Shown in pieces: positions 17,982-63,798 of a stretch of 64,000 bases of DNA. The position numbers were made by a program, and so were the translations under genes. Within the stretch, counting starts at the first letter, position 1. Every line of letters starts with the position of its first letter. The notes beneath the pieces are model-generated. The model did not search any database and had not been told where the DNA came from. It saw only the letters and a list, made by a program, of their open reading frames with translations. The DNA lies in assembly GCA_964016885.1 (NCBI GenBank), contig OZ024743.1, forward strand, positions 120,280,001 to 120,344,000, read 5' to 3'. This DNA comes from Eledone cirrhosa. Lineage: Eukaryota.

Positions 17982-19094
17982 CAAAATAATGTTGACCTGT
18001 TATCTGTGAAGAACTAGGGTTGACCTTTATATGAGATACATGAAAAAATCTGAATTTTTTAGCAAAAAATAGATGATTGACTTTTACATGCATATATATG
18101 GTATATATAGAAGGAAAGATTCTTGACTGGTTGCTTTAGACATCAGCATATTAAGTGATCTGAGACAAATACCAAAGGTGGAGAATGCACATACAAAAAT
18201 ATATATTAGCATACCATTAATCGTGTGTATCCAGTTTAGAAGAAGTACACTGTATCTCTGTGTGTCGTAAAAAGAGATTAAAAGGGTTAGTGTAAGGAAG
18301 GGCATCTGGATGTAAACATTGCCTCAAAATGTCCTGTCCAACTTACGTCCAAAAATGATGATGATGCCAACATGAAAATGACAAAGACCACATTATTTAA
18401 AGTTTATAGAGCCACTGCCAACAGGGGCTGCATCCTTATGTACATGTTATAACTTAAGGTTTCTAAAAGTTGCCCATCTTTCACATCCTTTCTTCCCATG
18501 TCAAATTGAGTCTTTGTGACCGTTTCTTATTTTAATATGTCGATGTTTCCATATTTCCCTGTTGTAGATTGTAATTGAGTGTATATGTCTTCTCTAGATT
18601 TTTTTCTCCTCTAACATTTATTGATTTGTTTTGTAACTAATAGTTATTATCTATAGTGTGTTTAAACAAAACACAATAACTGAATTGCTTCTCTGCCCTG
18701 GATGCTTTTTAAAGCATTTCTATCTCTCCTTAAACAATGACCTAGCTTGTACCAGTAAAATTTTGAAGTTAGATGTGATTATATAATACACCCTGTCAGG
18801 TGGAGTGCCAGTGCCATGATAAAACATACCTAGCATATGCTATGAAGTGATTGGTGTTAAGAAAGGCATTCCATTTAGCCTTAGAAACTATGTCAGAATG
18901 GAATGTATGAACAAGACACAGTCATCTGATATGTCTGACTTCAATCTGGATGTAAAACAGTGATGTTAGATGTGTAGTATAAAGTAGTAGCATACACTGT
19001 ATATTCAATGATGTAGATGTAGAACTGAAAGAGCAAGTTTATGCTCCTTGTATTGGGAAAGCTTACGGATAGTTTAATTATTTGTAACATTAAG

Positions 19095-21778
19095 GAACAG
19101 TAAGGAACAGTAAGGTGGAGGAGTCAATTAAGGCCAAAAAGCAGGCTTGGAAAGTATGGCGGGATGGGGGAAGTAGAGAAGACTATCAAGTGGCCAGGAG
19201 GGAAGCTAGGAGACAAGTGTACTTTGCAAGAAGGGAAGCAGAGGAAAGAAAGTTCAAGCATGTTCTACAACGTGAGGACCAAAAACGTGAGGTGTTCAGG
19301 ATTGCCAGGCAATGTGTCAAGGAAAACCGTGATATTGTCGGGGAGAAGTGTGTGCTTAATGATGATGGCATACTTGCCATCACCGACGCTGATAAGAAGG
19401 TAGCTTGGAAGTGTCACTACGAAAGGCTTCTAAATGAGGAGAACAAATGGGAGAAAGACAGTCTCCCCCAGATCGATCCAATAGAGGGACCAGCAGTGTT
19501 AGTTGAAGGTAGTATAATAAGTAAGGCAATCAAAGATATGAAGACGGGTAAGGCGGCTGGGCCTTCGGAAATAGTTGCTGAGATGCTGAAGGCATCTGGT
19601 TCGGTGGGACACACCATGGTCACCCGGATAGTTAACCAAGTCGTACAGAATGGGGTTGTTCCGAAGGAATGGCGTAGCAGCATCATCGTTAACTGCTATA
19701 AGGGAAAAGGAGATGCCCTAGATAGGAGTAACTATAGAGGCATTAAATTAATCGACCAGGTCATGAAGGTCACGGAAAAAGTAATAGCGCAACTAATCAG
19801 AGAGAGAATTGATCTAGATGAAATGCAGTTCGGGTTTGTGTCAGGCAAAAGTACCACAGACGCTCTTTTCATTGTACGACAACTACAGGAGAAGTACCTA
19901 GCTAAAAGTAAACCCCTATACTTAGCTTTCGTCGACTTGGAGAAAGCCTTCGACAGAGTCCCCCGTTCCATTATCTGGTGGTCTCTTAGAAAACTAGGTG
20001 TTGACGAATGGCTTGTGAGAGCTATACAAGCCATGTATAAAGAAACAGTCAGTAAGGTTAGAATTAACAACGAATATAGTGAAGAGTTTAGCGTAAAAGT
20101 TGGTGTCCATCAGGGCTCTGTTCTTAGCCCCCTACTATTTATTATTGCCCTTCAGGCTATAACAGAGGAGTTCAAGACCGGCTGCCCATGGGAACTCCTA
20201 TACGCAGATGATCTAACGCTCATAGCTGAATCAATGACCGAACTAGAGAAGAAATTCCAAACATGGAAGCACGGCCTAGAATCAAAAGGCCTTAAAATTA
20301 ACCTGGCTAAGACTAAAGTTCTAGTTTGTAGGAAAGAAAATAAGGCGGCGGTCCCATCTGGGAAATGGCCATGCTCAGTGTGCAGGAAAGGCGTAGGTAG
20401 AAACTCCATTTTATGTCCCAAATGCAAAGTATGGGTGCATAAAAGATGTAATGGGATCACAGGTAAGCTAACTAAGAACATAGATTTTACATGTGGCCGG
20501 TGCTCTGGTGCAATAAGTAGCAGCAAGTGCCCACAAAATACTAGCTCCTTCAACTGCGCAGAGGGTTCTATAGAAATAGTGGACAGCTTCCGTTATCTGG
20601 GTGACAAAATCAGCAGTGGGGGAGGGTGCTCTGAAAGTACAGTAGCTAGAGTCAGAACTGGATGGAAAAAGTTCAGAGAGCTTATACCACTATTAGCCGC
20701 TAGAGGGTTCTCCCTAAAAATGAAAGGCAGGTTATACGATGCCTGCATACGAACAGCAATGCTGCATGGCAGTGAGACCTGGGCATTGTGTGCAGAGGAT
20801 ATACGCAGACTAGAGAGGAACGAAGCTTGCATGCTCCGCTGGATGTGCAATAGTAATATATGTGAACGGCAAAGCATAAACGAACTAAGGAAAAAATTAG
20901 AAATAAGAGGGATCAGATGTTGTTTACTCGAGAGAAGGCTACGTTGGTACGGTCACGTGATGCGCATGAAAGACGACAGCTGTATAACAAAGTGCAGGGC
21001 AATAAAGATAGACGGTAGCCACGGAGTAGGCAGACCCAGAAAAACATGGGACGAGCTGATAAATTCCGACCTCACACGCTTACACCTCTCCAAGACAATG
21101 TCACTGGACCGAGACCTTTGGCGGTACTCAGTAATAGAGAAGACCCGCCTTACCTAAATACAAAGTAAAAACCTACTACAGTCAGTAGGCATCTCTATCA
21201 AAACACCCCCCCGTCCCACCACCTCCACCCCACCCACACCGCCCCTTTCAATGTAAAGTTATGTTGGTCCCACAACATCCAGGCCGAAACAAATGAGATC
21301 GTGTAGGTGTCACGACAAAAAACACACAGTCCACGCTGTAAATGTGGCTGTGTAGGCAACACGGTAAAAACCTCCCAGCCCCACACTGTAAATGTGGTTG
21401 GTGTTAGGAAGGGCATCCAGCTGTAGAAAACCCGCCAGACAGTCCACGCTGTAATGTGGCCGTGTAGGCAACACGGTAAATACCTCCCAGCCCCACACTG
21501 TAAATGTGGTTGGTGTTAGGAAGGGCATCCAGCTGTAGAACACCCGCCAGACAGTCCACGCTGTAATGTGGCCGTGTAGGCAACACGGTAAAAACCTCCC
21601 AGCCCCACACTGTAAATGTGGTTGGTGTTAGGAAGGGCATCCAACTGTAGAAAACTCGCCAGACAGTCCTATGCGAGCAAGACAACCACTCTTGCCTCAA
21701 GTGGGAAAACCCCCGTCCAAACCCATGCAAGCGTGGAACACGGACGCTAAACCTGATGATGATGATGATGATGATGAT
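19095..21778 (+). mobile_element. Young 5'-truncated RTE-clade LINE in TM2D2 intron 3
   Basis: Uninterrupted 680-codon frame with RT motifs (QFGF, FVDLEKAFD, QGSVLSPLLF, YADD) and the RTE C-terminus (RLRWYGHV, GRPRKTW). No endonuclease domain; (TGA)n tail. Confidence 0.95.
21328..21668 (+). repeat. Three tandem 112-113-bp units in the RTE 3' UTR
   Basis: AGTCC unit starts at 21328, 21441 and 21553, and the array closes at 21665. Confidence 0.9.
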
Positions 21779-28506: not shown

Positions 28507-28540
<34 letters not shown>

Positions 28541-29668
28541 TGTAGTGGGATCACAGGTAAACTGTCTAAGAACGTAGATTTTATATGAGGTCGATGCTCA
28601 GGTGCAATAAGTAGCAAGTGTCCACAGGATACTAGCTTCTTCTATTGCCCAGATGGTTCTATAGAACTAGTGGACACTTTCCGTTACCTGGGTGACAAAA
28701 TCAGTAGTGGTGGAGAGTGCTCTGAAAGTACAGTAGCCAGAGTCAGAACGGGATGGAAAAAGTTCAGAGAGCTTATACCGCTGTTGGCCACAAAAGGTTT
28801 CTCTCTAAAAATGAAAGGCAGATTATATGATACCTGTATACAAACAGCAATGCTACATGGCAGTAAGACATGGGCATTGCATGCAGAGGACCTGCGTAGA
28901 CTGGAAAGGAACAAAGCTTGCATGCTCCGCTGGATGTGTAATAGTAATATACGTGAACGGCAAAGCATAAATGAACTAAGTGAGAAATTAGGAATAAGAG
29001 GGATCAGTTGCTGTTTACTTGAGAGAAGACTACGTTGGTATGGTCACGTGATGCACATGAAAGATGACAGTTGTATAAAACAGTGCAAGGTGATCAAAAT
29101 TGATGGTAGTTACGGAGTAGGTAGACCCAGAAAAACTTGGGACGATTTGATAAATTCCGACCTTACACACTTACACCTCTCTAAGACAATGTCACTGGAC
29201 CGAGATCTTTGGCGCTACACAGTAATACAGAAGACCCGCCTTGCCTATGTACAAAGCGAAACCTACAGTCAGTAGGTATCTCTTAACCAAATATACACCC
29301 CAATCCACTACCCCTACCCTATCCTCCCACTCCCACTAACACCACCCTCTCTCTGTAAAGTTGGTACCACAACATCCAGTTCAAATAAATGAGATAGAAA
29401 TTGAGATCGTGTAGGTGACATGACAAAAAAAACACACAGTCTACGCTGTAATGTGGCCGTGTAGGTAACACGGTAAATAGTTCCCAGTTCCACACTGTAA
29501 ATGTGGTTGGTGTTAGGAAGGGCATCCAGCCGTAGAAAACCTGCCAGATAGTCCTATATGAGTGAGACACGGTCACCCGACCAACCTTGCCTCAAGTGGG
29601 ACAACTCCCATCTAACCCATGTTAGTGTGGAAGATAGACGTTAAATGAAGATGATGATAATGATGATA
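28541..29668 (+). mobile_element. 5'-truncated RTE LINE, same family as 19095-21778
   Basis: ORF 28670-29275 closely matches the C-terminus of the 680-aa ORF; single-unit 3' UTR; TGA tail. Confidence 0.95.
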
Positions 29669-35256: not shown

Positions 35257-35320
35257 TTAAAAATACAAACTACTAAACTTTTAAAAACGTTTTTCATATT
35301 TAAAAAAATACTATTTACAG

Positions 35321-35445
35321 GTACTGCTGTTGGTAAATTACTAACACTTGGTGGAATAGGTATCTGGTGGATTGTTGACATCATTCTTTTGATTACTGGA
35401 TCTTTGAAGCCTGAAGATGGTAGCAGTTGGGTTCCATATTACTGA
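35321..35445 (+). CDS. TM2D2: TM2D2 last coding exon
   Basis: Acceptor tttacAG; (G)[40 protein letters not shown]. Spliced CDS is 155+88+116+89+125=573 nt, i.e. 190 aa plus stop, in frame. Confidence 0.95.
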
Positions 35446-35706
35446 ACAATCTTTTAAAATGAATATATTTATATGTATTGATATGTGGAAAAATTGTATT
35501 TTTGCTGTTTGTAAGCCTCAAAACATAAGACTCATTTTAGGATAATTGGTGTTTTCCATTAAAAAAAAAAAATACTCATTTAACAAAGATGAATGAATGA
35601 ACTTTGCATACTTGGAAATAATGTCAGTTAAAACCTGCAATCAGTTAATGATAAAAATTTGTATTATATGTGCCCTGTGAATTGTTTTATTGTTAACTAT
35701 TGTATG

Positions 35707-46964: not shown

Positions 46965-49746
46965 GTTTTTAATTTCTTTCATTATTGTTTCTGAGATATA
47001 TGCCGAGTGTCTTCCCGACACCTAGGGCAAATAAATTCACAGTGTGCATTGGTAAGCCAGTCAATACAGCACATTAATTATAATGAAAAAAAAAAAAAAA
47101 AAAAAAAAAAACCGTATACACATATACACATGTGCATATGCATATGTAAATACAAGGAGGGATATCAATCTTACAGAGATAGTGCTCTTCTCGATACGTG
47201 TGCAGTACCAGTCAAAACAATTTTTTGCACCTCGTGCAGAGAGGGTAAACCAGGAATCATTAGCAAATATTGTTCTGTTCCTTTCTTGATCATTCCCAGT
47301 CCTCCCACAATCACTGGTATTGTAACTGCCTTGAGGTACCACATTTTCTCAATTTCAATAAGCAGATCTTTATAATTTCGTAGTTTGTCAAATTCTTTTG
47401 CCGCGTTATTGTGATCACATGCGATGCTCATATCTATCAATAAACATACCTTATTATGTTGATCGTTTACAATGATGTCAGGTCTATTTGCTTTTATGGT
47501 CCTGTCAGTATGTACAGGAAAGTCCCAGAGAATTATTACTTTTTCTCCTTCAGTTACAGCCTCATGGTGATGATTGTACCACTTGTCTTCAGCTTTGATT
47601 TTGTAATGCCGACATATTACCCAGTGTAGATATTGGCCAACTCTGTCATGTCTATATTTGTATTTTACTGGTGCTAAAATTTACACCCAGAGACTAAGTG
47701 ATTCACTGTTTCAACCTCAGCATTGCAGAATCGGCACTTTGGGTTTATTCGGTTTCTCATCACATTGGCCTAGTAATTACGAGTCAATAAGCTTTGATCT
47801 TGGGCAGCTAAGATGAAGCCTTCACTCTCCGCCTTTAGCCCTGAACTACGTAGCCACTGATGGGTGTGCTTTTGGTCAACATCAGCCTGTTTGCTACGGG
47901 CCACATATTTACATGCAGAGGTTTCTGCTCCCAATTTGATGCTAATTGTCCTTGCCCTTTTGCTTTTGCCAGTGATTTTATGTGCCTAGCAGCATCAGTT
48001 GCAACAGTTTCTTTAGTCTGTCCAGCCTGGGTATCAAGCATGAGATCAGTAGCATATTTTTTGCTTTCCTTCAAGATAGAATGAAGCTTCTTACTTCTTT
48101 CATGCTTTTCAACAAGTTTCAGCATACAGTCATTAGTTGTTTCAAGGTATTTGGCCAGTCCAATGATGGTGGTCTTGTAAACAAGTTCAAATTGGATCAG
48201 GCCACGGCCTCCTTGAGTTCTAGGAAAGTAAAGACGATCCACATCTGCTTTTGTGTGGTGCATCCTATTACAGGTCAGTAGCTTACGGACTTTGGTGTCG
48301 ATTCTTTTGATTTCACTCATATTCCAGTTCAACACACCGAAACTATAAGTGACAACTGGGACTGCCAAAGAATTTATGGCTAGCACCTTGTTACGAGCGT
48401 TTAGTTCATATCTCAGAACTGCACGTACTCTCCTGTAACATTCTTTCCTTATCCTCTCTTTCATACTTGCATGCTGTATGCCAGAGCCCTCATTAATCCC
48501 TAAGTATTTATAGGTTTGTTCCTGCTCAAGTTCCTTTATGATTGTTTCAGCATCCAATTCAACTGAGTCTGAGTTGACAAGCTTCCCCTTCTTGAAAGTG
48601 GCTTTTGCACACTTATCAAGCCCAAAACTCCATCCCGATGTCATCGCTAAACGTGTTTACTGTCTGCAAAAGGCCTTCCAGTTCGTCATTATCTTTGCAA
48701 TATAGCTTCAAATCATCCATATAAAATAGGTGGCTTATTTTTTTTTTGTCAATTCTATAACCGTACCCTGTTCTATTAAATTCGGATGTAAGGTGTATTA
48801 AAGCTATGCAGAAAAGCAAGGGTGAAAGTGAGTCACCCTGGAATATACCACAGTTGATATTTATATTCCTAGAGCACAGTACCCCAGTGGAATGAGACAA
48901 TTGGAGATTTGTGTTCCATAATGACATATTGTGTTTCAGGAAGTTTGAGATCACAGGTGAGATTTTGAAGATGTCCAGTGATTTCAGAATCCATGAGTGT
49001 GCTATGCTGTCAAAGGCTTTTTTATAATCGATCCATCCAGAACTGAGATTTCTGTGTTTATTATGACAGTTCTCAAGGATCATACGATTAATCAAAAGTT
49101 GATCTTTGCAACCATATGAACCTCGTCGGCACCCTTTTTGTTCAATGGGGAAAAGATTGTTCTCCTCCAAAAACACGTATGCTTTTTCCATGAGAATAGA
49201 GGTTAATAGTTTATAAGTGGTGGACAAGCAGGTTATGGGCCGATAGTTTTGGGGATCTTTGGTTTCGTTGTTCTTTGGTAGAAGGTAGATAATGCCACTT
49301 GCTATCCAATCAGGTGTAATTTTTGGATCTTTCATAATTCTATTAAACAGCTTGACCAATATATTGTGAGTGCACAGGAGTAAGGAAATCCAGAAATTTG
49401 GCACCCTGTCTTTACCAGGAAATTTCCATTTATGAGATTTATTGAGTGCTGTCCTTAAGTCCGCTATAGAGATGTCTTCCCATGCCTGTTCTTCTAAATT
49501 TGTGTACGATTTTTCCAGACGACTAATCCAATCTACATTAACATTATATGTCTTCTCATCACTCCAAATCTTACTCCAGAAGTTTTCAACTTCTATATTA
49601 ATTTTTCTTCCCTACTTCTCTATAAAATGGATGAGAACAACTTATTTTGCCTGTAGAAGTTGTTTCGCTTCTCGAATCTACGAATTCGTTGGGCTTTTAC
49701 TTGGACTTTTGTTTCAGAGATTCTTTTGTTGAAACTATTGCTTCTT
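46965..49746 (-). mobile_element. 5'-truncated, frameshifted R4/Dong-like RLE retrotransposon, family B
   Basis: RT (NYRPITCL, EQKGC, WIDYKKAFDS, QGDSLSPLLF, YMDDLKL), GGRGL, CCHC remnant and RLE C-terminus. (TTA)n at 46948-46964 and from 49747. Confidence 0.9.
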
Positions 49747-49780
49747 TATTATTATTATTATTATTATTGTTATTATTATT

Positions 49781-49927
49781 CCTTGAATCTCAGTCATTGA
49801 TGTTGGTTAACTGGAAAGTCCGTTGGATTGAATATCAAGCCACTACCTGCAGCCTCAGATATTCAGGACGTATCGGAGGGTTCTTGCTGTTCCAAGCAAG
49901 CATGCCTTTTGAAGCGTTCCAAAAAGC

Positions 49928-49929
<2 letters not shown>
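49781..49929 (-). mobile_element. R4/Dong-like family A, ~150-bp 3' fragment
   Basis: Nearly identical to 56315-56463; TTA repeats on both sides. Confidence 0.95.
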
Positions 49930-49966
<37 letters not shown>

Positions 49967-49978
49967 GTTATTGTTATT

Positions 49979-51218
49979 CCTTGAATCTCAGTCATTGATG
50001 TTGGTTAACTGGAAAGTCCGTTGGATTGAATATCAAGCCACTACCTGCAGCCTCAGATATTCAGGACGTATCGGAGGGTTCTTGCCGTTCCAAGCAAGCA
50101 TGCCTTTTGAAGCGTTCCAAAAAGCGTGAAGGGGCCGATTTTCTTTAACCATCCCTGGAAACCTTTGGAGATAGTCCCCAGTGCGCCTATGACAATCGGG
50201 ATCACTTTGACTTCATGGCAGTTCCAAATCCTTTTCACCTCCCACTTTAGGTCCTGGTATCGGTTAATTTTCTCCCTCTCCTTCTCTTGCACTCTCGTGT
50301 CGAACGGGCAGGCCACATCCACAATCAGGCACGATCTTTTTTCTTTGTCCACAACCACCAGGTCAGGTCTATTGTGTTCCAGTTTTTTGTCCGTCTGTAT
50401 CCTAAAATCCCACAACACCTTCACCTGACTGTTCTCCATCACCGCCTCTGGCCTATGCTCATACCATTTCTCAGAATGTGGTAGATTGTTTACTTTGCAC
50501 AGGTGCCAGTGGATCACCCTGCCCATCACATCGTGTCTCCAGCCCTTATAGTGGGTCTGGGCTAGGTGTTTACACTCGGACACAATGTGAGCCACAGTCT
50601 CCTCTCTCTCTCCACAGATCCTGCACAGTGGGCTAGCCTCCTCCTTGTAGATATGGTGCTTCAACCACTTCGTTTTGAGGGCCTGCTCCTGCGCAGCCAT
50701 TAGCATTCCTTCTGTAGCCTTTTTGAGGTCTCCTCTTCTCAACCAGTTCCATGTCTGTGGATCTCTAAATTCAGTTTTCTCAAAGAAGGTACTATGAAGG
50801 GATTTTCCCTTAAGGCTGCTCTTCCTCCTTGATGTTATTTCCTCCTTGGGTATCCCCTGGCCTACTGTCCCCTCCTTCAGTACAGCTCTGAGCATTGGCT
50901 CCTTACTATAGGTCACGTATTTGTATAGGTTGTTTTTCTCCATCTGAACACAGTCCTCTATGCTGATAAGACCTCTTCCACCCTCAGATCTCCTTAGGTA
51001 GAGTCTATCGACATCACTCCTCTTGTGGAACATGTTGTAGATAGTCAATAGCTTCCTAGTCTTCCTATCCATTTCTTTTTGTTCAGCAACATTCCATCTC
51101 AGAATTCCCGCACTGTACCTAATAATAGACACAGCTCGGGAATTTACTGCGCTTATGGCATTTCTGCTGTTCAGATGTGACTTCAATACGCTCCTTACTC
51201 TCCGAATGTATTCAGTTC

Positions 51219-51220
<2 letters not shown>
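49979..51220 (-). mobile_element. R4/Dong-like family A, 1.24-kb 5'-truncated copy
   Basis: ORF 50053-51186 differs from the matching part of 56389-57927 at one visible residue (GIPK versus GISK). CRIC..H...C, RHD, PDLVV..DVACP motifs; TTA repeats on both sides. Confidence 0.95.
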
Positions 51221-51254
<34 letters not shown>

Positions 51255-54200
51255 GGCGACCTACGTAGTAAATCGTATCATCGTGAGCTCCGCAAAGGTT
51301 TGTTATTTTCAGTTGTTTAATATTGCCATTCATGGAAAATTTTTATTGTTAACATTGATTTCTGAAAAGGACACTCAAAAATATTGGGGCCTTGAGCCCC
51401 AAATTTAAACTTTTTATAATTATCAAACAAAACTTTTTCTTTAAAAAATAATGGATGACTCAGATTCACTCCTTCCTCACAATCCAACACCTCACACCGA
51501 CACCACAATTGTAAATATTGCTACGTTTGCCAACACTGGAATTGTAAGCAGTAGCAATATTTTAAATTTGTCTCAGGCAGACGTTCATTTCCCGCCATTA
51601 CCAATGACTGCAGGTGTTAAAGCCGCCACCACCACCACCAGCACCGCGACATCCCCCCCCCCCCCCCACCACCACCACAACGACAACAGAAACAAAAGAA
51701 AAAAATAAATTAACTCATGATATCGAAATGAATTCAACCAAAATGAACTCTTCCACACCGAACACCACTGACGCCACCACCACCACAACTGAAACTAAAA
51801 TTAACAATAGCAAAAATAACGATAATATCAACAGCAACAATGAAATTAAGAAAACTACCCTGAGTTTTGCTAGAGTAGCAAAAACGTGCGAAGCGATCCA
51901 GGTAACTCAGGAAGAATTAGACGAAGCCAAAGGAATAGTAAAGAAAGATGGGTACAGGGTCAGCCTCACTCCCCACCCATTTGGTACATGTGTGGGCAAA
52001 AAAAACCCCACATCAGACGTAGGCAGAAGTATGGAACCGTGGATGTGTTCTTTGAAACACCAGAGGAGGCCAGAGAACACTCCATGGCCCCATTAAGAAG
52101 TGACGACTTCACACTCGTCCCAAGCTATTGTGGCCAGAGACTCGTGAAGATCAAGGTGACCCACGTTCCACCGGCCATCGAAATTCCCTGGCTAATGGCT
52201 GCCGTCCTCGCCGGCATCGAGGCCAACACCAAAATAATAGAAATAGCAAAAGAAAAGCAGGAGAACTGGTCCGGATCTGGGTTGGAGCTCCTGATCCAAG
52301 CGGACGATAAAAGCATTGAGGAGATCCCAGAGGTAATAGACCTCACTGATGGCAGCCACCTCACCGTAATCGTCGGGGGCAGAAGACCTAGGTGTGTCGT
52401 TTGTGGTGAAGGAACCCACCTAAGGGCTTTCTACCCTCAGGCTAAAAGGTTGAGGCCACCTCTCTTACCCACCCCAGTGACTCAACCATCAACACCACTA
52501 GCAGCAGAAATAGCAGCAACAACTGTAGCAGCAACAACAGAAGCAACTGTAACAGCAACAACCCCACCAACAGTAGCAAAACCAACACCACCACCACACA
52601 ACGCCCCAGAACTAGCACCAGCGCCTACACCATCCACCACGCCACAACCAAAACCAACGCCTGTGGAGGATTTTACACTCCCCGGCTTATCGCAACTGGA
52701 GACAGATTGTGACGACGAGGAGTGGGAAACGGTATCAGGAAAAAAGAAAAAAAAAAAGAAACCAAAAAAAGAAAAAAAATCTCTTCCTTCCCCCTCAAAA
52801 AACAAAATACAGAGGGAAACAAATAAATTATCGAACAAGAAAGTTAAGACAGATATGCCACCATCCACACCAGCATCATCAACCCCATCACCACAAACAT
52901 CAACACCATCACCATCATTAACCCCAACACCACCATCACCAACACCACAAAAGTCACCAAAAAGCGTAACAGAAACAAACCCACAACAAACGCAAACAAA
53001 ACAAAACAACCAAAACGATACACACTACACAGCATTAAATTTGAACAACAAGCAATTATTGCACTACATGCAACACAACACCAGCATCACAGAAAAAGAC
53101 TACATAACAACCCCAAAGTTCACACCACCTCCACACATACAAATCACTCGCATCACACAGAAAACGTACACGACACTAAAACAAAAATTCCCCAAAGATA
53201 TCGGAGACTTCCGACAAACACTCTCCAGGAGGAATTATAAGGACATCCTTCCGGAGGAGGCCACAAGCAGTGAAAAGGATGGACAAACCATCCTTCCTCT
53301 ACGAGAAGTAAGGTAAGTGGTTTTTCCCATCTTTTCCACTCCATTTCAACATGACCTCACTCAGAATAGGCAGCATAAATGCGCGTGGTTGGGGTCGCCA
53401 TGGAAGCAGGGCCACCTGCTCAACGACCACAGGTCACTAAACATAGATGTAGTGGCCATCAGCGAAACCAGAATCTCCGAAGCACGGGCCTTCTCACCGA
53501 TCTTCGGCGGCTACGATGTGTACGCATCTCCCAGCCGTCCGGGATCGGGTGGGGTGGGGGTGGGGTGGGGGTGGGGGTGGAGGGGGGAGGGGGGAGGAAT
53601 TGCTGTGCTTTTTCGGAGAGGTTTGGATTTCGCCATACGGGCCATCTTCCTGGACCCAGAAGGTAAGTTGGTGGTGCTAGACGTGACCAGCGGAGACGGG
53701 CAAGCTATCAGGCTAGTGGCCGTCTATGCCCCGACAGGAGCAGGGCGGCCTGATTTCTTCCGGCGTCTGGAGACCTTTCTTGGAACGTCCCGCTCTTTAG
53801 TGTTAGTGGGCGACTGGAACGGGATCTTAGATGCACGCTGGGACTGTGTGGGATTAGCGGATAGGGGAGGAGGGTGCAAGAGCCTCACCAACCTGCTCAG
53901 GCGTTTTGAACTGTCTGACAGGTACCGATTGGATTTCCCGAATGTGCCAATGTGGACTCGGACAAATCGCATAGGGTCATCCAGATCATATCTAGATAGA
54001 GTATTTTGTAGAGAAATAGATAGGTCTAGGATAGGCTGTCCACAATTCAAGATAGTCAGCTACACGGACCAATAGAGCAGAGGGAGAATTAGTTAGAAAA
54101 TTAGACGAGGCGCTTAGCAAAGGCATCGCGACCGACGTACTTGCGGCGAAATTGGCCCTTGACCAATTCTTCAATGCAAAGCACGAAGGCTGCGTTGTCA

Positions 54201-56030
54201 GAGCTAGGGTGCGTGCTCTCAGACACGAGGGAACGAAAGCCGTTCAATAGGCCCGAGTGGCGGAGGCGCGTCGTGGAAACAAAGCCACGATCCGGTCTTT
54301 GGTTGACCACGACGGGCGCATGCTACTCGATCCCGGGCAAATGTGTGAAGCTTTTCAGCGACACTTCCCTCAGTTGTTCGGGGGCAGCGGCGGGCTGGAT
54401 CGTGGGATGGACTTTAGTGTCTACCTCGACGGACTGCCCCGGCTCTTGGCCACTTGGCCAAACACATCAAGGTGATCGGCACTACACTAAGAGAATACGA
54501 AGCGGTGACAGGAGCAATGATCAGCCAGGAAAAGTCAGTGGGCCTGCAGCTCGGCACCTGGAGAGGCAGGTCCATGCCGTCCAACAGCGTCGTCGGGCGC
54601 TGGACGGAGGGACCAGTTAAATTGCTCGAGGTCTGGTTCGGTCCGCATCTCCAGACGGACAAAAACTGGGACGAGGTGACGAGCCGGGTGGCTTCTCTCA
54701 CCCAGAAATGGGCTGAGAGGAAGCTATCCCTGAAAGGTCGAGCGGAGGTGGCTAATGCGTATATCGCGTCCGTCATCTACTACCGCCTGACCATCGTACC
54801 TTGTCCTAAGCCCCGCCTGACTGCGCGGGAGCGTTTGCTCTTTCGCTTTTTGTGGAAGGGACGCGCTCCGATGGTCAGGCGGTCCATCTGCTGTCAACAC
54901 CCGCTACGTGGAGGGCTGGGAATGCCGTGGCTGATGATGCGCAGACACGCGCTCAGGCTACGACATCTCCACCTCTTCCTCGACGGCGATCAGGTGTGGT
55001 CTCCGTTTGCTAGACGCGTCTTTCCCCAGCTCATCTCCTCGACGGAGCTGCAGTCCTGGGTCAAGCGAAGACCGAGAGAGAGCGCTTGGAGACTGGAATG
55101 TCTTCAGGCGCTCACAGCCCTCGACCAATCGGGCAATGTGATCGGTGGAAACTCCACCTTGGCGTTCTAAAGAGGATTAGTGGAGGGGAAGAGCGACGAC
55201 ATACTTGGGAAAACTCTAGGCGTCGACGAAAATCAATTAGCTAATCTCTTCGGAAGAACTTTCGGGCTGGGGCCTATGGACAACTTCCAGAAATCCCTGA
55301 CCTGGAAGTGCTACCGAGGAGCTTTGCCAGTTCGGGATAAACTATACAGGCATGGAGGTGCCGTCTGCCGGGCATGTCCGAGATGCGCGCAGGGCGACGA
55401 AACCGTCCTGCACGCACTCGTCCAGTGTCCGAGCATTGCTGACTTGAGGGTTTATGTCGAACACCTGCTGTCGCGTGTAGGACGGATCCAGCTATCAGCT
55501 GAGTCCATCGTGAGGATTGCCCCGCCCTCTTCCTTTAGCCGGGAAGGGCAGGCAGTTTTTATCTGTCTGGTGGCCATGGCGAAAGAGATAGTATGGTGGA
55601 CACGTTTGAAAGGGCTGAAGACGAGCACTTACCTCTTCGGTGATGCCCTGATTAACTTTTTCAAATTTCATTTAAAAAGGAAAATCAGGGTAGAAAGGGA
55701 AGTGCTCTCTTCCCAGCATTTTGTTGAAAGATGGGTGAGAGAGGCAAGAATAGCCCGAGTGAATGGGCCTACTCTGAGTATGTGTCTGTAAATTAAAAGT
55801 GGAACACTGGGAGAGGGCACTTGCCCTGGTGGTCAGGGTCACTGTGGCTTTTTAATGGGGATGTCCCTCGGAAGTCTCCCCCCTATTGGGGAATTTTTTC
55901 ATTGTTCTATTATTACATCCTCTGTTTCTTGTTTTTTACACGCAGAAATGCCCATTTGTACCGTCCTGTATTGTCCTGTACTGTCCTTAATGTCTACTTT
56001 ATGTAAACCCTTGTGGTTAATAAAGAAATC
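51255..56030 (+). mobile_element. Tx1/L1-clade LINE with both ends retained but the RT core deleted
   Basis: Frameshifted ORF1 (51451-53316; T/P-rich, degenerate CxxC...H knuckle). ORF2 starts at about 53351 with an APE endonuclease (GSINARG, SETR, VYAP, GDWN, YLDR, YTD). C-terminus has GGLGMP and CPRC..ETVLHALVQC, ending at 55791. No YADD. Confidence 0.9.
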
Positions 56031-56258
56031 ATTATTACATCCTGTGTTTCTTGTTTTTTACACGCAGAAATGCCCATTTGTACCGCCCTGTATTGTCCTG
56101 TACTGTCCTTAATGTCTACTTTATGTAAACCCTTGTGTTTAATAAAGAAAGCCTTATTATTGCCATTGTGCACTTTTACTCGACCTTATTGTAAACCCCC
56201 ACTGTCCCTGTCTTTTTATTGTCCCCTACATGTCGGCCCTTGTGGCTAATAAATGAAA

Positions 56259-56260
<2 letters not shown>
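56031..56260 (+). mobile_element. Two additional short Tx1 3'-end copies in tandem
   Basis: Termini CCCTTGTG..AATAAA(T)GAAA at about 56150 and 56260, each followed by (T/A)TTATT. Confidence 0.75.
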
Positions 56261-56302
<42 letters not shown>

Positions 56303-56314
56303 GTTATTGTTATT

Positions 56315-59300
56315 CCTTGAATCTCAGTCATTGATGTTGGTTAACTGGAAAGTCCGTTGGATTGAATATCAAGCCACTACCTGCAGCTTCAGATATTCAG
56401 GACGTATCGGAGGGTTCTTGCCGTTCCAAGCAAGCATGCCTTTTGAAGCGTTCCAAAAAGCGTGAAGGGGCCGATTTTCTTTAACCATCCCTGGAAACCT
56501 TTGGAGATAGTCCCCAGTGCGCCTATGACAATCGGGATCACTTTGACTTCATGGCAGTTCCAAATCCTTTTCACCTCCCACTTTAGGTCCTGGTATCGGT
56601 TAATTTTCTCCCTCTCCTTCTCTTGCACTCTCGTGTCGAACGGGCAGGCCACATCCACAATCAGGCACGATCTTTTTTCTTTGTCCACAACCACCAGGTC
56701 AGGTCTATTGTGTTCCAGTTTTTTGTCCGTCTGTATCCTAAAATCCCACAGCACCTTCACCTGACTGTTCTCCATCACCGCCTCTGGCCTATGCTCATAC
56801 CATTTCTCAGAATGTGGTAGATTGTTTACTTTGCACAGGTGCCAGTGGATCACCCTGCCCATCACATCGTGTCTCCAGCCCTTATAGTGGGTCTGGGCTA
56901 GGTGTTTACACTCGGACACAATGTGAGCCACAGTCTCCTCTCTCTCTCCACAGATCCTGCACAGTGGGCTAGCCTCCTCCTTGTAGATATGGTGCTTCAA
57001 CCACTTCGTTTTGAGGGCCTGCTCCTGCGCAGCCATTAGCATTCCTTCTGTAGCCTTTTTGAGGTCTCCTCTTCTCAACCAGTTCCATGTCTGTGGATCT
57101 CTAAATTCAGTTTTCTCAAAGAAGGTACTATGAAGGGATTTTCCCTTAAGGCTGCTCTTCCTCCTTGATGTTATTTCCTCCTTGGATATCCCCTGGCCTA
57201 CTGTCCCCTCCTTCAGTACAGCTCTGAGCATTGGCTCCTTACTATAGGTCACGTATTTGTATAGGTTGTTTTTCTCCATCTGAACACAGTCCTCTATGCT
57301 GATAAGACCCCTTCCACCCTCAGATCTCCTTAGGTAGAGTCTATCGACATCACTCCTCTTGTGGAACATGTTGTAGATAGTCAATAGCTTCCTAGTCTTC
57401 CTATCCATTTCTTTTTGTTCAGCAACATTCCATCTCAGAATTCCCGCACTGTACCTAATAATAGACACAGCTCGGGAATTTACTGCGCTTATGGCATTTC
57501 TGCTGTTCAGATGTGACTTCAATACGCTCCTTACTCTCCGAATGTATTCAGTTCTTAACAATTCCTTCATTTTTTTGTTCTTTATGCCATCAGCCTCCAG
57601 AACGCCCAAATACTTGTATCCTTCCTCAGAGTCAATATCCTTTATCATCTCACCTGTTGGTATCTGGATCCCGTTACTTCTGCTCAACCTACCCCTCCTC
57701 ATCACAATGACTCCACATTTACCAATACCAAACTGCATACATATATCACTGCTGAAAATACGGACAGTGTCAACAAGCACATCCAACTCCTTCTCACTTT
57801 TCCCGAAGAGCTTAAGATCGTCCATGAAGAGGAGGTGATTGATGGTAAGCTCTCCCCTTCCCAACTTGTATCCTGCTCTCACTTTTCGCAGCATAATGGT
57901 CAAGGGCATCAGGGCAAGGACAAACAACAGAGGGGACAGGCTATCTCCCTGGAAGATACCTCTCTTTTGATCTTCACGCTTCCCAAGGATACTCCAGTTG
58001 ATGTCAACTCTGTCTCCCAGGACCCCATACTCCTGCCCAGCAACTGTCTGATGTTATCTGCCACCCTGAAGATCTCCAGGCTTTTGGTGATCCAGGAATG
58101 AGGCACCATGTCAAATGCCTTTCTGTAGTCTATCCATCCCATGGCAAGATCAGTGTGTCTCCTCCTGCAATTCCCCATTACCATCTTATCAATAAGCAAC
58201 TGGTCCTTTGTACCACGTGACTTCTTTCGGCATCCTTTCTGTTCGTCCGGCAACAAGTTGTTTGTGTGGAGGTGATGGTAGATTTCCTCAGACACAATGC
58301 TCGTCAACAGTTTCCACATTACGGGCAGACATGTGATAGGTCTATAGTTGGTAACATCATTACCCTTGATTCGGTCTTTCATTATCAGAACTGTGGTACC
58401 TTTTGTCAACCACTCTGGCACCTCACCCGACACCAAGCAGTCATTGAACATGGCCGTCAGCTTCGGGTGGAGGGATGTTAAATGTTTAATCCAATACCCC
58501 TGCACACCATCTGGGCCTGGTGATTTCCAGTTGGTTAGTTTTTTGGCTTGCCCCTTAAGAGTTTCAACTGTGATACTCAAATCAGTCTGTTGTTGTGCCT
58601 GCTCACCGATCTCCCTCTGTACTGTCTCAATCCACCCTGCCTGGGCATTGTGTCTAACATCCTGCTCCCATATTCCTCTCCAGAATGTTTTAGCTTGTTC
58701 CGCCCCAGGGATCAAGTCGTTGCCTCTTTCTTTCCCCTCAAGCTGTCCAAACAGCATCTTCTGGTTGTTGTCGAACATGCGGTTCTGTTTATACTGACTG
58801 ACTCTGTTCTCGTATCGCCTGATTTTGGCACTCTTTGCTACAATGCGTTGCTTCAATTCCTCTATGATAATATTTAGCTTTTTACTCCTAGTTTTGTATT
58901 TTATTTCCAGTCTATTTTTAGTGCCTATGTTTTTTAGTGTCCCATTCAGTAGTGACTCAAGCTTTCCTATGTCATTTCTCATTTCCCCGATTTGCCCACT
59001 CAGTCACTTCTTCCACCACGGCTCTGCTCTTTCTTGTCTGTTGTTTCCTCTCGCTTTTATACCAAGTAGTTTCCTCACCGTATTTGCTGTTGCTTTGAGG
59101 ATATTGTTGCACTGGTGAAGACTCCTCGCCTCAAGGTATGGGATGACTTTGTTTACCTTAGCTGTTGTTTCTTTTAACTTTTTCCTGTCTACAAATCTTA
59201 GGTTCATAGGTCTCCCACTATCATTGTTCAACTCATCTACCACTAAATTTAGGATGTCAACCGAATCTTGTCCTAGCCCGTCAGCATTCATCTCCTCAGT

Positions 59301-61185
59301 GGCCGTATCTCTGTTCCAGGTATTATTTATCTCAGTATTCAGATCATTGTCTGCTTCGGGTGGTTCCTCCGTTCTCAGGACCTCCTCACCTTCATTTCCC
59401 GCCGGCTCGCTTGTCTGGCATACTACACCCGCCATCTCCAAGCCATTCTCTCTGCTCAGTTCCTCCAGTTCCAGCTCGCTTATCCACCCATTAGTTCTTA
59501 TTACCCGAGCCTGACCGGCCAATTTTTGTTCATCTAATTTAAATAAACCAATCTCGTTCCAGATGTTATGCATCCGTCTCCTGTAGCCCCTCTCCTTGGG
59601 GTTACTTTTCAGGTAGCATTGCATAACAGTTCTATTCAATTCTTTCGTCCAGTTGGTTCTGGCCCCTTTCCTTCTTCTTCTTCCTCCAACATCAGCAGTA
59701 TTTGGTTGACAGTCAGGTTCCTGCTGCTGAGCCAGGGGGCACCTGTTGGGTGAGAGTCTGTCACATGACGTTCTAGTCTCCATTTCACCGTTATTCGAAC
59801 TGTTTATGTTCGATATTTAAACACTCTTATCGAGGATTGGCGAATGTATGTTTACATAGCCATCTGTGGATCCGCCATCCCACTTGGCCCTTGTGTGGCA
59901 TTATCACCACGCTGTATACGGACACACATAAAAAAACAAACACACGGGCAGAAAGGGCCCCAAAAATGAATAAGCATAAGTTTCATTGTAATGTAGTATT
60001 CGAATGTCTGACTTAGTTTTTGTTTTTTAAGTTTTACTTTTTCCCCCCTCTTCTTCTCTGTCCGTCCGCCTGCTTCTCTCTTCATTCTTATTTTCTTTAC
60101 GTTTTTGGGGTTTCTTTTTTTGTTTTTGTTTTTCTCTGTTTGTTTTTCTCGTTTTTTGCTGTTGTTGCTGTGCTGCTGTGGTTTTGTTGTTTGTTTTTTC
60201 TTTTTTCTTTTGAGTCTATCTATATATTTTGATGCCTTCCTCTTTGTTAGTAGTAGGAATTCTATAATGTGGAAGTGGCAGCCAGCAGAGACTGGCGGCG
60301 TTGGCGATACTGAGACAGTGGTGGTGGTGATGTCGATACCGAGGCAGTGGTGGCGGTGATGCGACCGTATTACTGTAGTGATGGTGCTGTAGCGGTGGCA
60401 GCAGCAGTGAAGGAGTCAAGGGGTGGTGGCGGCGGTGATGGGATAGTGGTGGTAATGATGGCCGCAGTGAGCGGTGGCGGTGAAGGTGAAAATGCTGTTG
60501 TGTTTAGTGTACACAGATGATGGGGTGGGTGGTGTATCTAGTTTCTGGTGTTGGTGAGTTTAGCTGTCCTATATAGTGTAGCCAGAGGAGAGGAGGGGGG
60601 GGGGTTCTTCTTCTTCCATTTATAGCCATTTTATTTTTTTTTTTTTTTGGATATACAGTGTACAATACAAAGTTGAATATTTGAATATTTGAGCCGTATT
60701 ACTGTAGTGATGGTGCTGTAGCGGTGGCAGCAGCAGTGAAGGAGTCAAGGGGTGGTGGCGGCGGCGATGGGATAGTGGTGGTAATGATGGCCGTAGTGAG
60801 CGGTGGCGGTGAAGGTGAAAATGCTGTTGTGTTTAGTGTACACAGATGATGGGGTGGGTGGTGTATCTAGTTTCTGGTGTTGGTGAGTTTAGCTGTCCTA
60901 TATAGTGTAGCCAGAGGAGAGGAGGGGGGGGGGGGGGGTTCTTCTTCTTCCATTTATAGCCATTTTTTTTTTTGGATATACAGTGTACAATACAAAGTTG
61001 AATATTTGAATATTTGAGTCTTATACCAATATATTTTGGGTCCGAATTTTTTTGGGCTCAAGCCGGGTGCTTTACGTAGCATTTGTACTAAGAGTTGTTA
61101 TTTCACAAATGATTTAAATATGTTAAAAATTCAAAACTTACGGGAGCGATTTCATGACCTCCGTCACCTCGTGCGTCTTCTTCCC
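56315..61185 (-). mobile_element. Apparently full-length R4/Dong-like RLE retrotransposon, family A
   Basis: ORFs 59004-59783, 57909-58982 and 56389-57927 join into one ~1130-aa protein (R4-type N-terminal WT..N..YRRRM..EQKLA.Q motif, RT with FMDD, CCHC, PD-D RLE). It is broken by one in-frame TGA and one 2-bp slip; (TTA)n on both sides. Confidence 0.95.
60365..61018. repeat. Tandem duplication of about 327 bp in the R4 5' region
   Basis: Units 60365-60693 and 60694-61018 are near-identical apart from homopolymer lengths. Confidence 0.95.
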
Positions 61186-61217
<32 letters not shown>

Positions 61218-61359
61218 TTTATATTTACTATTATTATTATTATTTATATTTTTTTTAATTATTATTTATATTTTTTTTTTTTTACTTTTACACTTTTAAC
61301 CTTTAAACTTTTAAATAACTTTTTTTCAAATGTTTAATTGCATCTTTCTACCTATTTTA

Positions 61360-63798
<2,439 letters not shown>

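Follow-up and report, generated by a model that had tools for sequence, protein, structure and literature searches.

The DNA considered here is a 64,000-nt stretch of the Eledone cirrhosa assembly GCA_964016885.1 (contig OZ024743.1, positions 120,280,001 to 120,344,000 of the forward strand), called the window below, in which a stack of long interspersed nuclear elements (LINEs) occupies positions 47171-61266. The stack is made up of four R4-type pieces belonging to two families and of one Tx1-type element, with TAA arrays between its members. Its full Dong/R4-like element runs on the minus strand from 61185 to 56315 and has TAA arrays at both ends: a (TAA)n target array 5' of the element at 61186-61266, which is degenerate toward its far end, and the 3' untranslated region (UTR) with its (TAA)n array at 56261-56388, both read on the minus strand. 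Ahead of the R4 open reading frame (ORF) lies a long leader, which the initial annotation of this DNA had read as the 5' end of an L1/Tx1-type element. Our analysis points in the same direction: with a probability of roughly 60%, this R4 family as a whole captured, long ago, an L1/Tx1-clade 5' UTR together with the beginning of the adjoining ORF1, and the captured head now forms the 5' end of the family and its putative promoter.

The single ORF of the element (56389-59783, minus strand) is predicted to encode an R4-type N-terminus, a reverse transcriptase (RT), a CCHC knuckle and a restriction-like endonuclease (RLE). Pfam recognized RVT_1 and zf-RVT in the body and no Exo_endo_phos, i.e., RT, CCHC knuckle and RLE without an apurinic endonuclease (APE), and the RT and RLE stretches matched solved R2 proteins (E 3e-11). 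The N-terminal block aligned with six full-length RT-RLE relatives at 32-50%; its PDB search was empty, and no Pfam or PDB match called it Myb. Insertion in (TAA)n is seen twice, as TAA arrays flank both the full copy and a 5'-truncated copy. Judged by its domains, N-terminal block and TAA flanks, the body is Dong/R4-like. Dong of Bombyx mori, DongAg, DongBg and the cephalopod Dong-R4 elements are built alike, with a single ORF, R4-type N-terminus, RT, CCHC knuckle and RLE, and (TAA)n on both sides corresponds to the known Dong target (PMC3812793, PMC7998251). The ORF is broken in the window copy by a stop codon at 59004-59006 and a frameshift near 57965, and most contigs of the four contig sets introduced below deviate from the window sequence at both breaks. 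No R4 relative was found in viral contigs, the one match to a motif, in a 205-kb contig, being due to chance.

The leader begins at 61185, where the minus strand opens with GGGAAGAAGACGCAC immediately after the TAA array. Its head (60954-61185, minus strand, 232 nt, starting with GGG) resembles an L1/Tx1-type 5' UTR and is likely, to judge from its sequence, a putative internal promoter with a start at about 61185. On the minus strand it carries an exact match to the frog L1 motif (A/G)GACGC(G/A) at 61172-61178, GCTCC at 61143-61147, which is the core of the frog L1 motif GAGCTCCG and is found in the Tx1 5' end as well, and GGCTTGAGCCCAAA at 61051-61064, which is common to Tx1 and stands there at +134. 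The head is followed by ATG GAA GAA at 60953, and from this ATG to 59990 (minus strand) the sequence is C/A-rich and then A-rich, likely representing a decayed ORF1 N-terminus. What the initial annotation described as a P/T-rich and then K/N-rich frame is not one frame, since the reading frame shifts and stops occur in every frame. One of these frames, at 60030-59986, ends with a K-rich stretch and then IRILHYN exactly at the junction of leader and R4 sequence; this resembles the first strand of an APE endonuclease, a likeness that was not significant on testing.

Within the leader, a tandem duplication of 329 bp (60365-61024, minus strand), not noted in the initial annotation, consists of copies at 60694-61024 and 60365-60699 with 95% matches, which beyond the first bases differ by two substitutions and two homopolymer lengths. 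It is a later, local event, and since these 329 bp are a recent duplication, the usual leader measures about 870 nt and not the 1.2 kb initially given; two contigs of run X5 join across the duplication and leave out 361 and 398 nt. From the start of the leader to the R4 ATG (59783), the 5' region measures 1402 nt, or 1073 nt minus the duplication. Its innermost part, the inner 5' UTR of about 205 nt (59784-59989, minus strand), is likely the older Dong/R4 5' UTR and is comparable in length to other Dong/R4 5' UTRs (151, 271, and 502 nt). Fourteen ATGs precede the R4 ORF, no TAA array lies between the leader and that ORF, and the sense strand reads TAA for the leader as it does for R4, against TTA for Tx1. 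On re-reading the sequence, the motifs, the ATG, the missing TAA/TTA spacer and the R4-like orientation were all present as first described.

The leader was compared with the neighbouring Tx1-type element (51255-56260, plus strand), which starts at 51255 right after a TTA array and whose 5' UTR (51255-51450) contains GAGCTCC at 51285, as part of an exact GAGCTCCG at 51285-51292, and GGCCTTGAGCCCCAAA at 51388, with ORF1 beginning at the ATG at 51451. The composite patterns GCTCC..AA..TTTG and GGC{1,2}TTGAGCCC each occur exactly twice in the 64 kb, once in each of the two 5' ends. In gap-tolerant global alignment, the pairing of the leader head with the Tx1 5' UTR was beaten by 0, 0, 0, 3, and 2 of 2480 window segments under five schemes, and it reached z values of 3.3-4.2 against shuffles within 15-60-nt blocks. 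For the 250 nt after the leader ATG and the Tx1 ORF1 start, z values of 2.2-3.6 were obtained at the DNA level against k-mer block shuffles. When the first 486 nt of the leader were aligned end to end with 446 nt of Tx1, this pair topped all 1224 window segments in three of four schemes, and its score was reached by none of 200 local-composition k-mer shuffles in any of the nine tests of those three schemes (z 3.2-4.6). The alignment holds 276 identities (52% of 527 columns) and 129 mismatches; it is colinear but remote, and it was made with one comparison element. The self-BLAST of the window gave no match between leader and Tx1 at E<=1e-5, and the leader frames used as protein queries against longer proteins, near-length proteins and a protein atlas returned no match, with Pfam noise only.

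Frog L1 5' ends carry the motifs (A/G)GACGC(G/A) and GAGCTCCG (PMC5381506), and in the first 45 nt of the leader the former stands exactly (AGACGCA, at +8) and the latter only as its GCTCC core (at +39). These motifs were defined in frog independently of the leader, and their spacing in the leader differs from that in frog. While the first motif alone is common (seven in the window vs. 5.9 expected), the pair occurs once (0.15 expected), namely in the leader. When the first 60 nt of the leader were shuffled 20000 times, the pair arose twice, compared to 534 and 192 times for the halves alone; the figure for the pair is optimistic because the second motif was relaxed and the spacer was picked after viewing the sequence. 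The exact GAGCTCCG of Tx1, at +31, is the sole one in the window and appeared in 10 of 20000 shuffles. Among ten R4-type loci from metagenomes, three possessed an upstream TAA array and a measurable 5' UTR (the 151, 271, and 502 nt given above), and neither frog L1 motif was found in any of these three. The 5' UTRs of two R4-type loci (L005, positions 100-330, and L001, positions 97-247) seem to resemble those of RTE/Expander elements; if this likeness holds, R4 elements may exchange 5' ends with other clades too. For the leader head, descent from the L1/Tx1 clade is probable. As to the neighbouring Tx1 family, its distance from the leader is too great for a direct donor, and it is only a distant relative of the donor.

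Whether the leader belongs to the R4 family or to this locus was addressed with contigs. A sequence search with 59780-61185 listed 20 runs in 12 studies, of which 16 had the stretch or part of it and four had at least half of its words; RNA runs were not among them, which carries no information on expression. Four of the 20, all of them contig sets, were compared over 57600-61200 (X1 and X5, organism A, study P1; X2, organism B, study P2; X7, organism D, study P3), while ten runs with shares of 0.19 or less and run X6 (0.46) do not enter the evidence. X1 and X5 are possibly the source of the window DNA. Of the 8004 pieces, 461 loose ends, 186 substitutions and 37 joints, the evidence rests on 32, 24, 40, and 15, respectively, and contig depth in these runs does not equal copy number. 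Contigs covered the leader in all four runs and hence under three organism labels and in three studies. In X1, 37 contigs carried one leader variant (at 61132) and 24 carried another (at 60362), and because contigs of one run carry differing variants, the leader is multi-copy; a leader unique to this locus, which would have spoken against the initial annotation, is not what the four runs contain. One contig of X2 (record 16, 60991-61200) and one of X5 (record 24, 61008-61200) extend from the leader into the TAA array, and since both cross 61185, copies of the leader commonly start at this position on TAA. X1 and X5 also contain diverged leader versions, with loose ends at 61070, 60813, and 60715.

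Linkage of leader and body is hinted at by an X1 contig that joins the leader head (61124) to the R4 body (58725) with 28 nt on its short side, an overlap short enough to call for caution, and by the bin means of X7, which imply one contig across about 59962-60088. At 59958-59990, no loose end was present among the 24 listed, and the records continuing unlike the stretch amounted to 0% in X1, 3% in X2 and 1% in X5. As a weak hint, the single-contig depth of X2 passes from body to leader without a step (80, 63, 56, 38, 28, 22, 24, 20), and that of X7 is roughly stepless too (123, 99, 107, 85, 56, 46, 40). X7 is probably a proximity-ligation library with untrustworthy loose ends, because it shows GATC insertions and 25% of its records continue unlike the stretch. 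In X5, a small run, the depth in the middle of the leader (59990-61000) amounts to several hundred, with 554 at 60279, whereas the flanks on either side reach about 150 and the R4 body has 61-81; this peak may be due to 5'-biased RNA or to a separate leader repeat, the kind of run not being on record. Low cover at 60504-60745 is partly due to a skipped repeat, and only joints across it were used. RNA editing was considered as the cause of an A/G asymmetry between window and contigs and was rejected, as the same A/T-ward drift is seen on both strands. On this evidence, the leader is very probably the normal 5' end of this R4 family.

Several observations weigh against a captured L1/Tx1 head. 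Gaps occupy 122 of the 527 columns of the 486/446-nt alignment, and the strict local score of that pair is borderline, being reached by 4 of 1224 segments and by 4-18 of 200 shuffles. BLAST-like local scoring of the two UTRs was not significant (330 of 1000 shuffles, 489 of 2480 segments, 116-171 of 400), so that the similarity to a Tx1 5' end proposed in the initial annotation exceeds chance in gap-tolerant end-to-end alignment and not in local scoring of this kind. The translated starts of leader and Tx1 aligned no better than shuffles (79-363 of 1000), and 150 relatives of the Tx1 ORF1 compared with the leader gave no match below E 0.7 after composition correction; an ORF1 stub in the sense of protein homology is not supported. 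The A-rich part at 60365-59990 is without a Tx1 match (43-100 of 150 shuffles in three schemes). The motif pair is partly fitted, with regard to core and spacer, and its first motif stands at +8 in the leader vs. about +30 in frog, while one diverged leader contig of X1 (loose end 61070) has the TTGAGCCC motif replaced. Among the contigs listed, none spans 59990 with 31 nt on each side, and contigs of X2 and X5 both terminate at 59987. Finally, a donor family for the leader was not found. This, together with the distance of the neighbouring family and the fact that a template jump needs no shared target, leaves the earlier proposal that the donor was a Tx1 element sharing the R4 target unsupported.

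Instead of having been captured, the leader might be a long 5' UTR that the family itself grew in place and whose likeness to Tx1 would reflect convergence on host promoter factors and shared low-complexity A/C-rich sequence. Such an origin would fit the absent protein-level match, the strict local alignments that are not significant and the at least threefold differences in length among Dong/R4 5' UTRs, and coexisting LINE families in one host have been argued to converge under common constraints (PMC5381506). Convergence does not readily explain, however, that the likeness is colinear across two separate parts and survives shuffles keeping local composition and 2-4-mers, nor that an ATG in the same position is followed by ORF1-like composition, which a promoter does not need, nor that the leader motifs agree with those of frog L1. 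We therefore regard growth in place as unlikely, though it is the strongest of the alternatives. Descent from yet another APE-type LINE, i.e., a low-complexity N-terminus of the CR1/L2, RTE or I group ending at the first endonuclease strand, would account for the K-rich stretch and IRILHYN right at the junction and for the resemblance of the junction spot to the start of the RTE at 61900. Seven residues are too few for a domain call, though, the head motifs are L1-type, and the RTE likeness is A-rich, with a score that 2-23 of 2110 control segments also reach. On these controls, neither an RTE origin of the leader nor an APE start at the junction was accepted, and an origin in these groups appears very improbable.

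A further possibility concerns linkage and not ancestry: the leader could be derived from L1/Tx1 and nevertheless be a separate repeat, 3'-deleted or non-autonomous, that resides in TAA arrays and adjoins R4 here or in a minority of copies only, in which case no capture at the level of the family took place. The contigs of two runs stopping at 59987, the lack of a junction-bridging contig among those listed and the mid-leader depth of X5 at several times that of the R4 body can all be read in this way. By contrast, a separate repeat would be hard to reconcile with the X1 contig connecting leader head and R4 body, with the missing depth step in X2 and X7, with the few records (0%, 3%, and 1% in X1, X2, and X5) that continue unlike the stretch and with the 24 listed loose ends, none of which falls at 59958-59990. 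The junction is also without a TAA array, unlike those in the nested stacks at 49929-49978 and 51220-51254. A separate repeat is thus a quite unlikely explanation, and capture by the family is preferred.

Following the capture reading, we propose that an octopod Dong/R4 lineage gained the 5' UTR and ORF1 start of an L1/Tx1-clade element upstream of its own short 5' UTR. On reaching the 5' end of its own RNA, the R4 RT would have switched to a broken L1/Tx1 RNA as template and continued to the start of that RNA. The sense-sense orientation and the missing TAA spacer would follow from such a template jump onto L1/Tx1 RNA, for which a shared target is unnecessary. Within the capture reading, the jump is slightly favoured as the route, and the alternative, an insertion of R4 in an L1/Tx1 ORF1 with subsequent 5' transduction, is only slightly less likely. 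Afterwards the hybrid may have turned into a master element, because transcription would start at about 61185 regardless of the flank. The ORF1 piece would have decayed to untranslated sequence, and translation of the R4 ORF, behind its upstream ATGs, might proceed by internal initiation or by re-initiation. The diverged leader variants (61070, 60813, 60715) and the three organism labels suggest that the capture event is old.

The captured head is predicted to replace host read-through and ribozyme release as the mode of expression. B. mori Dong self-cleaves at its TAA junction via a hepatitis delta virus (HDV)-like ribozyme that releases it from read-through RNA (PMC3774820), which is in accordance with the initial annotation in that RLE elements of this kind normally rely on read-through transcription. 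The window family differs from B. mori Dong in its 5' sequence of about 1070 nt, at the front of which stands an L1-type head, and searches for a ribozyme found none: the inner UTR gave neither a credible Rfam match nor a descriptor match, and the same tests found no ribozyme in the leader head. These tests lack a working positive control, because they yielded no strict match in four other R4 5' regions either. A relic HDV-like ribozyme at 59987-59784, for which a 7-bp P1 and a near-complete P2 can be drawn by eye, was rejected, since 138 of 200 shuffles gave the same relaxed topology, the folding z was -0.53 and a credible Rfam match was lacking. Self-cleavage at the old 5' end would in any case have had to be lost or leaky, as the leader would otherwise not be copied.

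The components of this proposal have known counterparts: the TAA target of Dong, microsatellite targeting by Tx1, 5' UTR replacement in L1 and R2/R1 hybrids are all established. In vertebrate L1, a LINE lineage likewise adopts a new 5' end and spreads with it (PMC5381506); in those cases an L1 with an existing promoter is the recipient, whereas here the recipient is of an RLE clade, with a likely L1/Tx1 donor, across the deepest split of the non-LTR elements. R2 jumps in vivo onto other, small RNAs and once perhaps founded a subfamily in this way (PMC3414825). The template jumps of Drosophila R2 and the R2/R1 hybrid short internally deleted elements (SIDEs) are alike in that an RT of an RLE clade adds other RNA at the 5' end and that cross-clade hybrids exist at one locus (PMC3414825). 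In the R2 cases, small RNAs were added or a non-autonomous R2-ribozyme head sits on an R1 tail, while in the window a full R4 ORF bears an L1/Tx1-type head, which is the opposite direction. No published report of a Dong/R4 element with an L1/Tx1 head was found in a search that was thin on subscription journals and Repbase Reports. The three fetched Dong/R4 relatives have 5' UTRs of 151-502 nt compared to about 1070 nt in the window family. Dong-R4 is abundant in cephalopods (PMC8967140, PMC10294476, PMC9115989, PMC13282606) and R4-Dong is almost confined to them among molluscs (PMC10294476). In O. vulgaris, Dong-R4 accounts for 1129 of 2533 recently active LINE insertions, the most of any group (PMC13282606). 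From Table 1 of that paper (five families), 4,732,901 bp in 1129 copies correspond to a mean length of 4192 bp, against 3675 bp for the window element without the leader and 4542 bp with a single-copy leader, the families not being matched; as the mean exceeds the length without the leader, it lends indirect outside support to the leader as a family feature. The long 5' end may already be contained, unremarked, in the O. vulgaris consensus library or transcriptome (PMC9115989).

The transcription of microsatellite-targeting RLE elements has been little studied, and their scattered TAA targets, unlike ribosomal DNA, are no transcription units. If the capture reading is true, the L1-type promoter of a Dong/R4 family would solve this problem in a natural way and make the family a direct test case, and the swapping of 5' ends would extend beyond L1 to a transfer between clades, with an autonomous RLE element as the recipient. 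The capture would also offer a testable reason for the near restriction of R4-Dong to cephalopods among molluscs and for its high recent activity in O. vulgaris. The most far-reaching version, in which an octopod autonomous RLE element took over an L1/Tx1 promoter, dropped ribozyme-dependent read-through and hence came to be among the most active LINEs of these genomes, explaining the cephalopod-only expansion of Dong-R4 among molluscs, is put forward tentatively and we consider it doubtful. Should the promoter role fail, the family would be an ordinary Dong family whose 5' UTR is unusually long.

With regard to the other members of the stack, a divergent R4-type fragment (41% identity in the RT region) lies at 47171-49611, and the stack also holds a 3' fragment and a 5'-truncated copy of the same R4 family as the full element. 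The truncated copy (49929-51220) matches the 3' end of the full R4 (56265-57556) at 99.7% identity, so that it arose either through very recent insertion of a sister copy or through local duplication around Tx1. The Tx1-type element shows the features of its clade, with Exo_endo_phos and zf-RVT recognized by Pfam; its APE-RT ORF2 is broken and internally deleted, the middle of the RT missing in the window copy, and the PDB search with its APE gave no match. Its ORF1 has 242 relatives at E<=0.001, with zf-CCHC in one of the two relatives scanned, and five of the eight clusters examined bear the names Octopus sinensis, O. vulgaris, O. bimaculoides, or Argonauta hians. On the sense strand, TTA repeats stand at both ends (51220-51254 and 55909-56314), and three copies of the terminal motif CCTTGTG..TAATAAA..GAAA, located near 56031, 56150, and 56260, each have TTATTA after them. 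Like the Tx1 families Kibi, in (TC)n, and Koshi, in (TTC)n, the element sits in a microsatellite with a T-rich unit on the sense strand, and its (TTA)n target is not among the described ones, TC, TTC, TTCC, and TTTC, in the excerpts of PMC4494074 and PMC3812793. It may thus belong to a (TTA)n-targeting family, a specificity that is not demonstrable from a single copy.

Elsewhere in the window, an RTE-type element (61900-63362, plus strand) that has an internal deletion and bears a C2H2 finger at its C-terminus faces the leader head to head at a distance of about 700 nt. Another, 5'-truncated LINE is present at 19094-21157 (plus strand) as an open frame of 687 codons, in which a PHD finger interrupts or follows the RT, and a second copy of it lies at 28538-29554. 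At 35318-35446 (plus strand), the probable last coding exon of a host gene encodes two short hydrophobic segments and is followed by an AT-rich 3' region; its product presumably resembles a TM2-domain protein.
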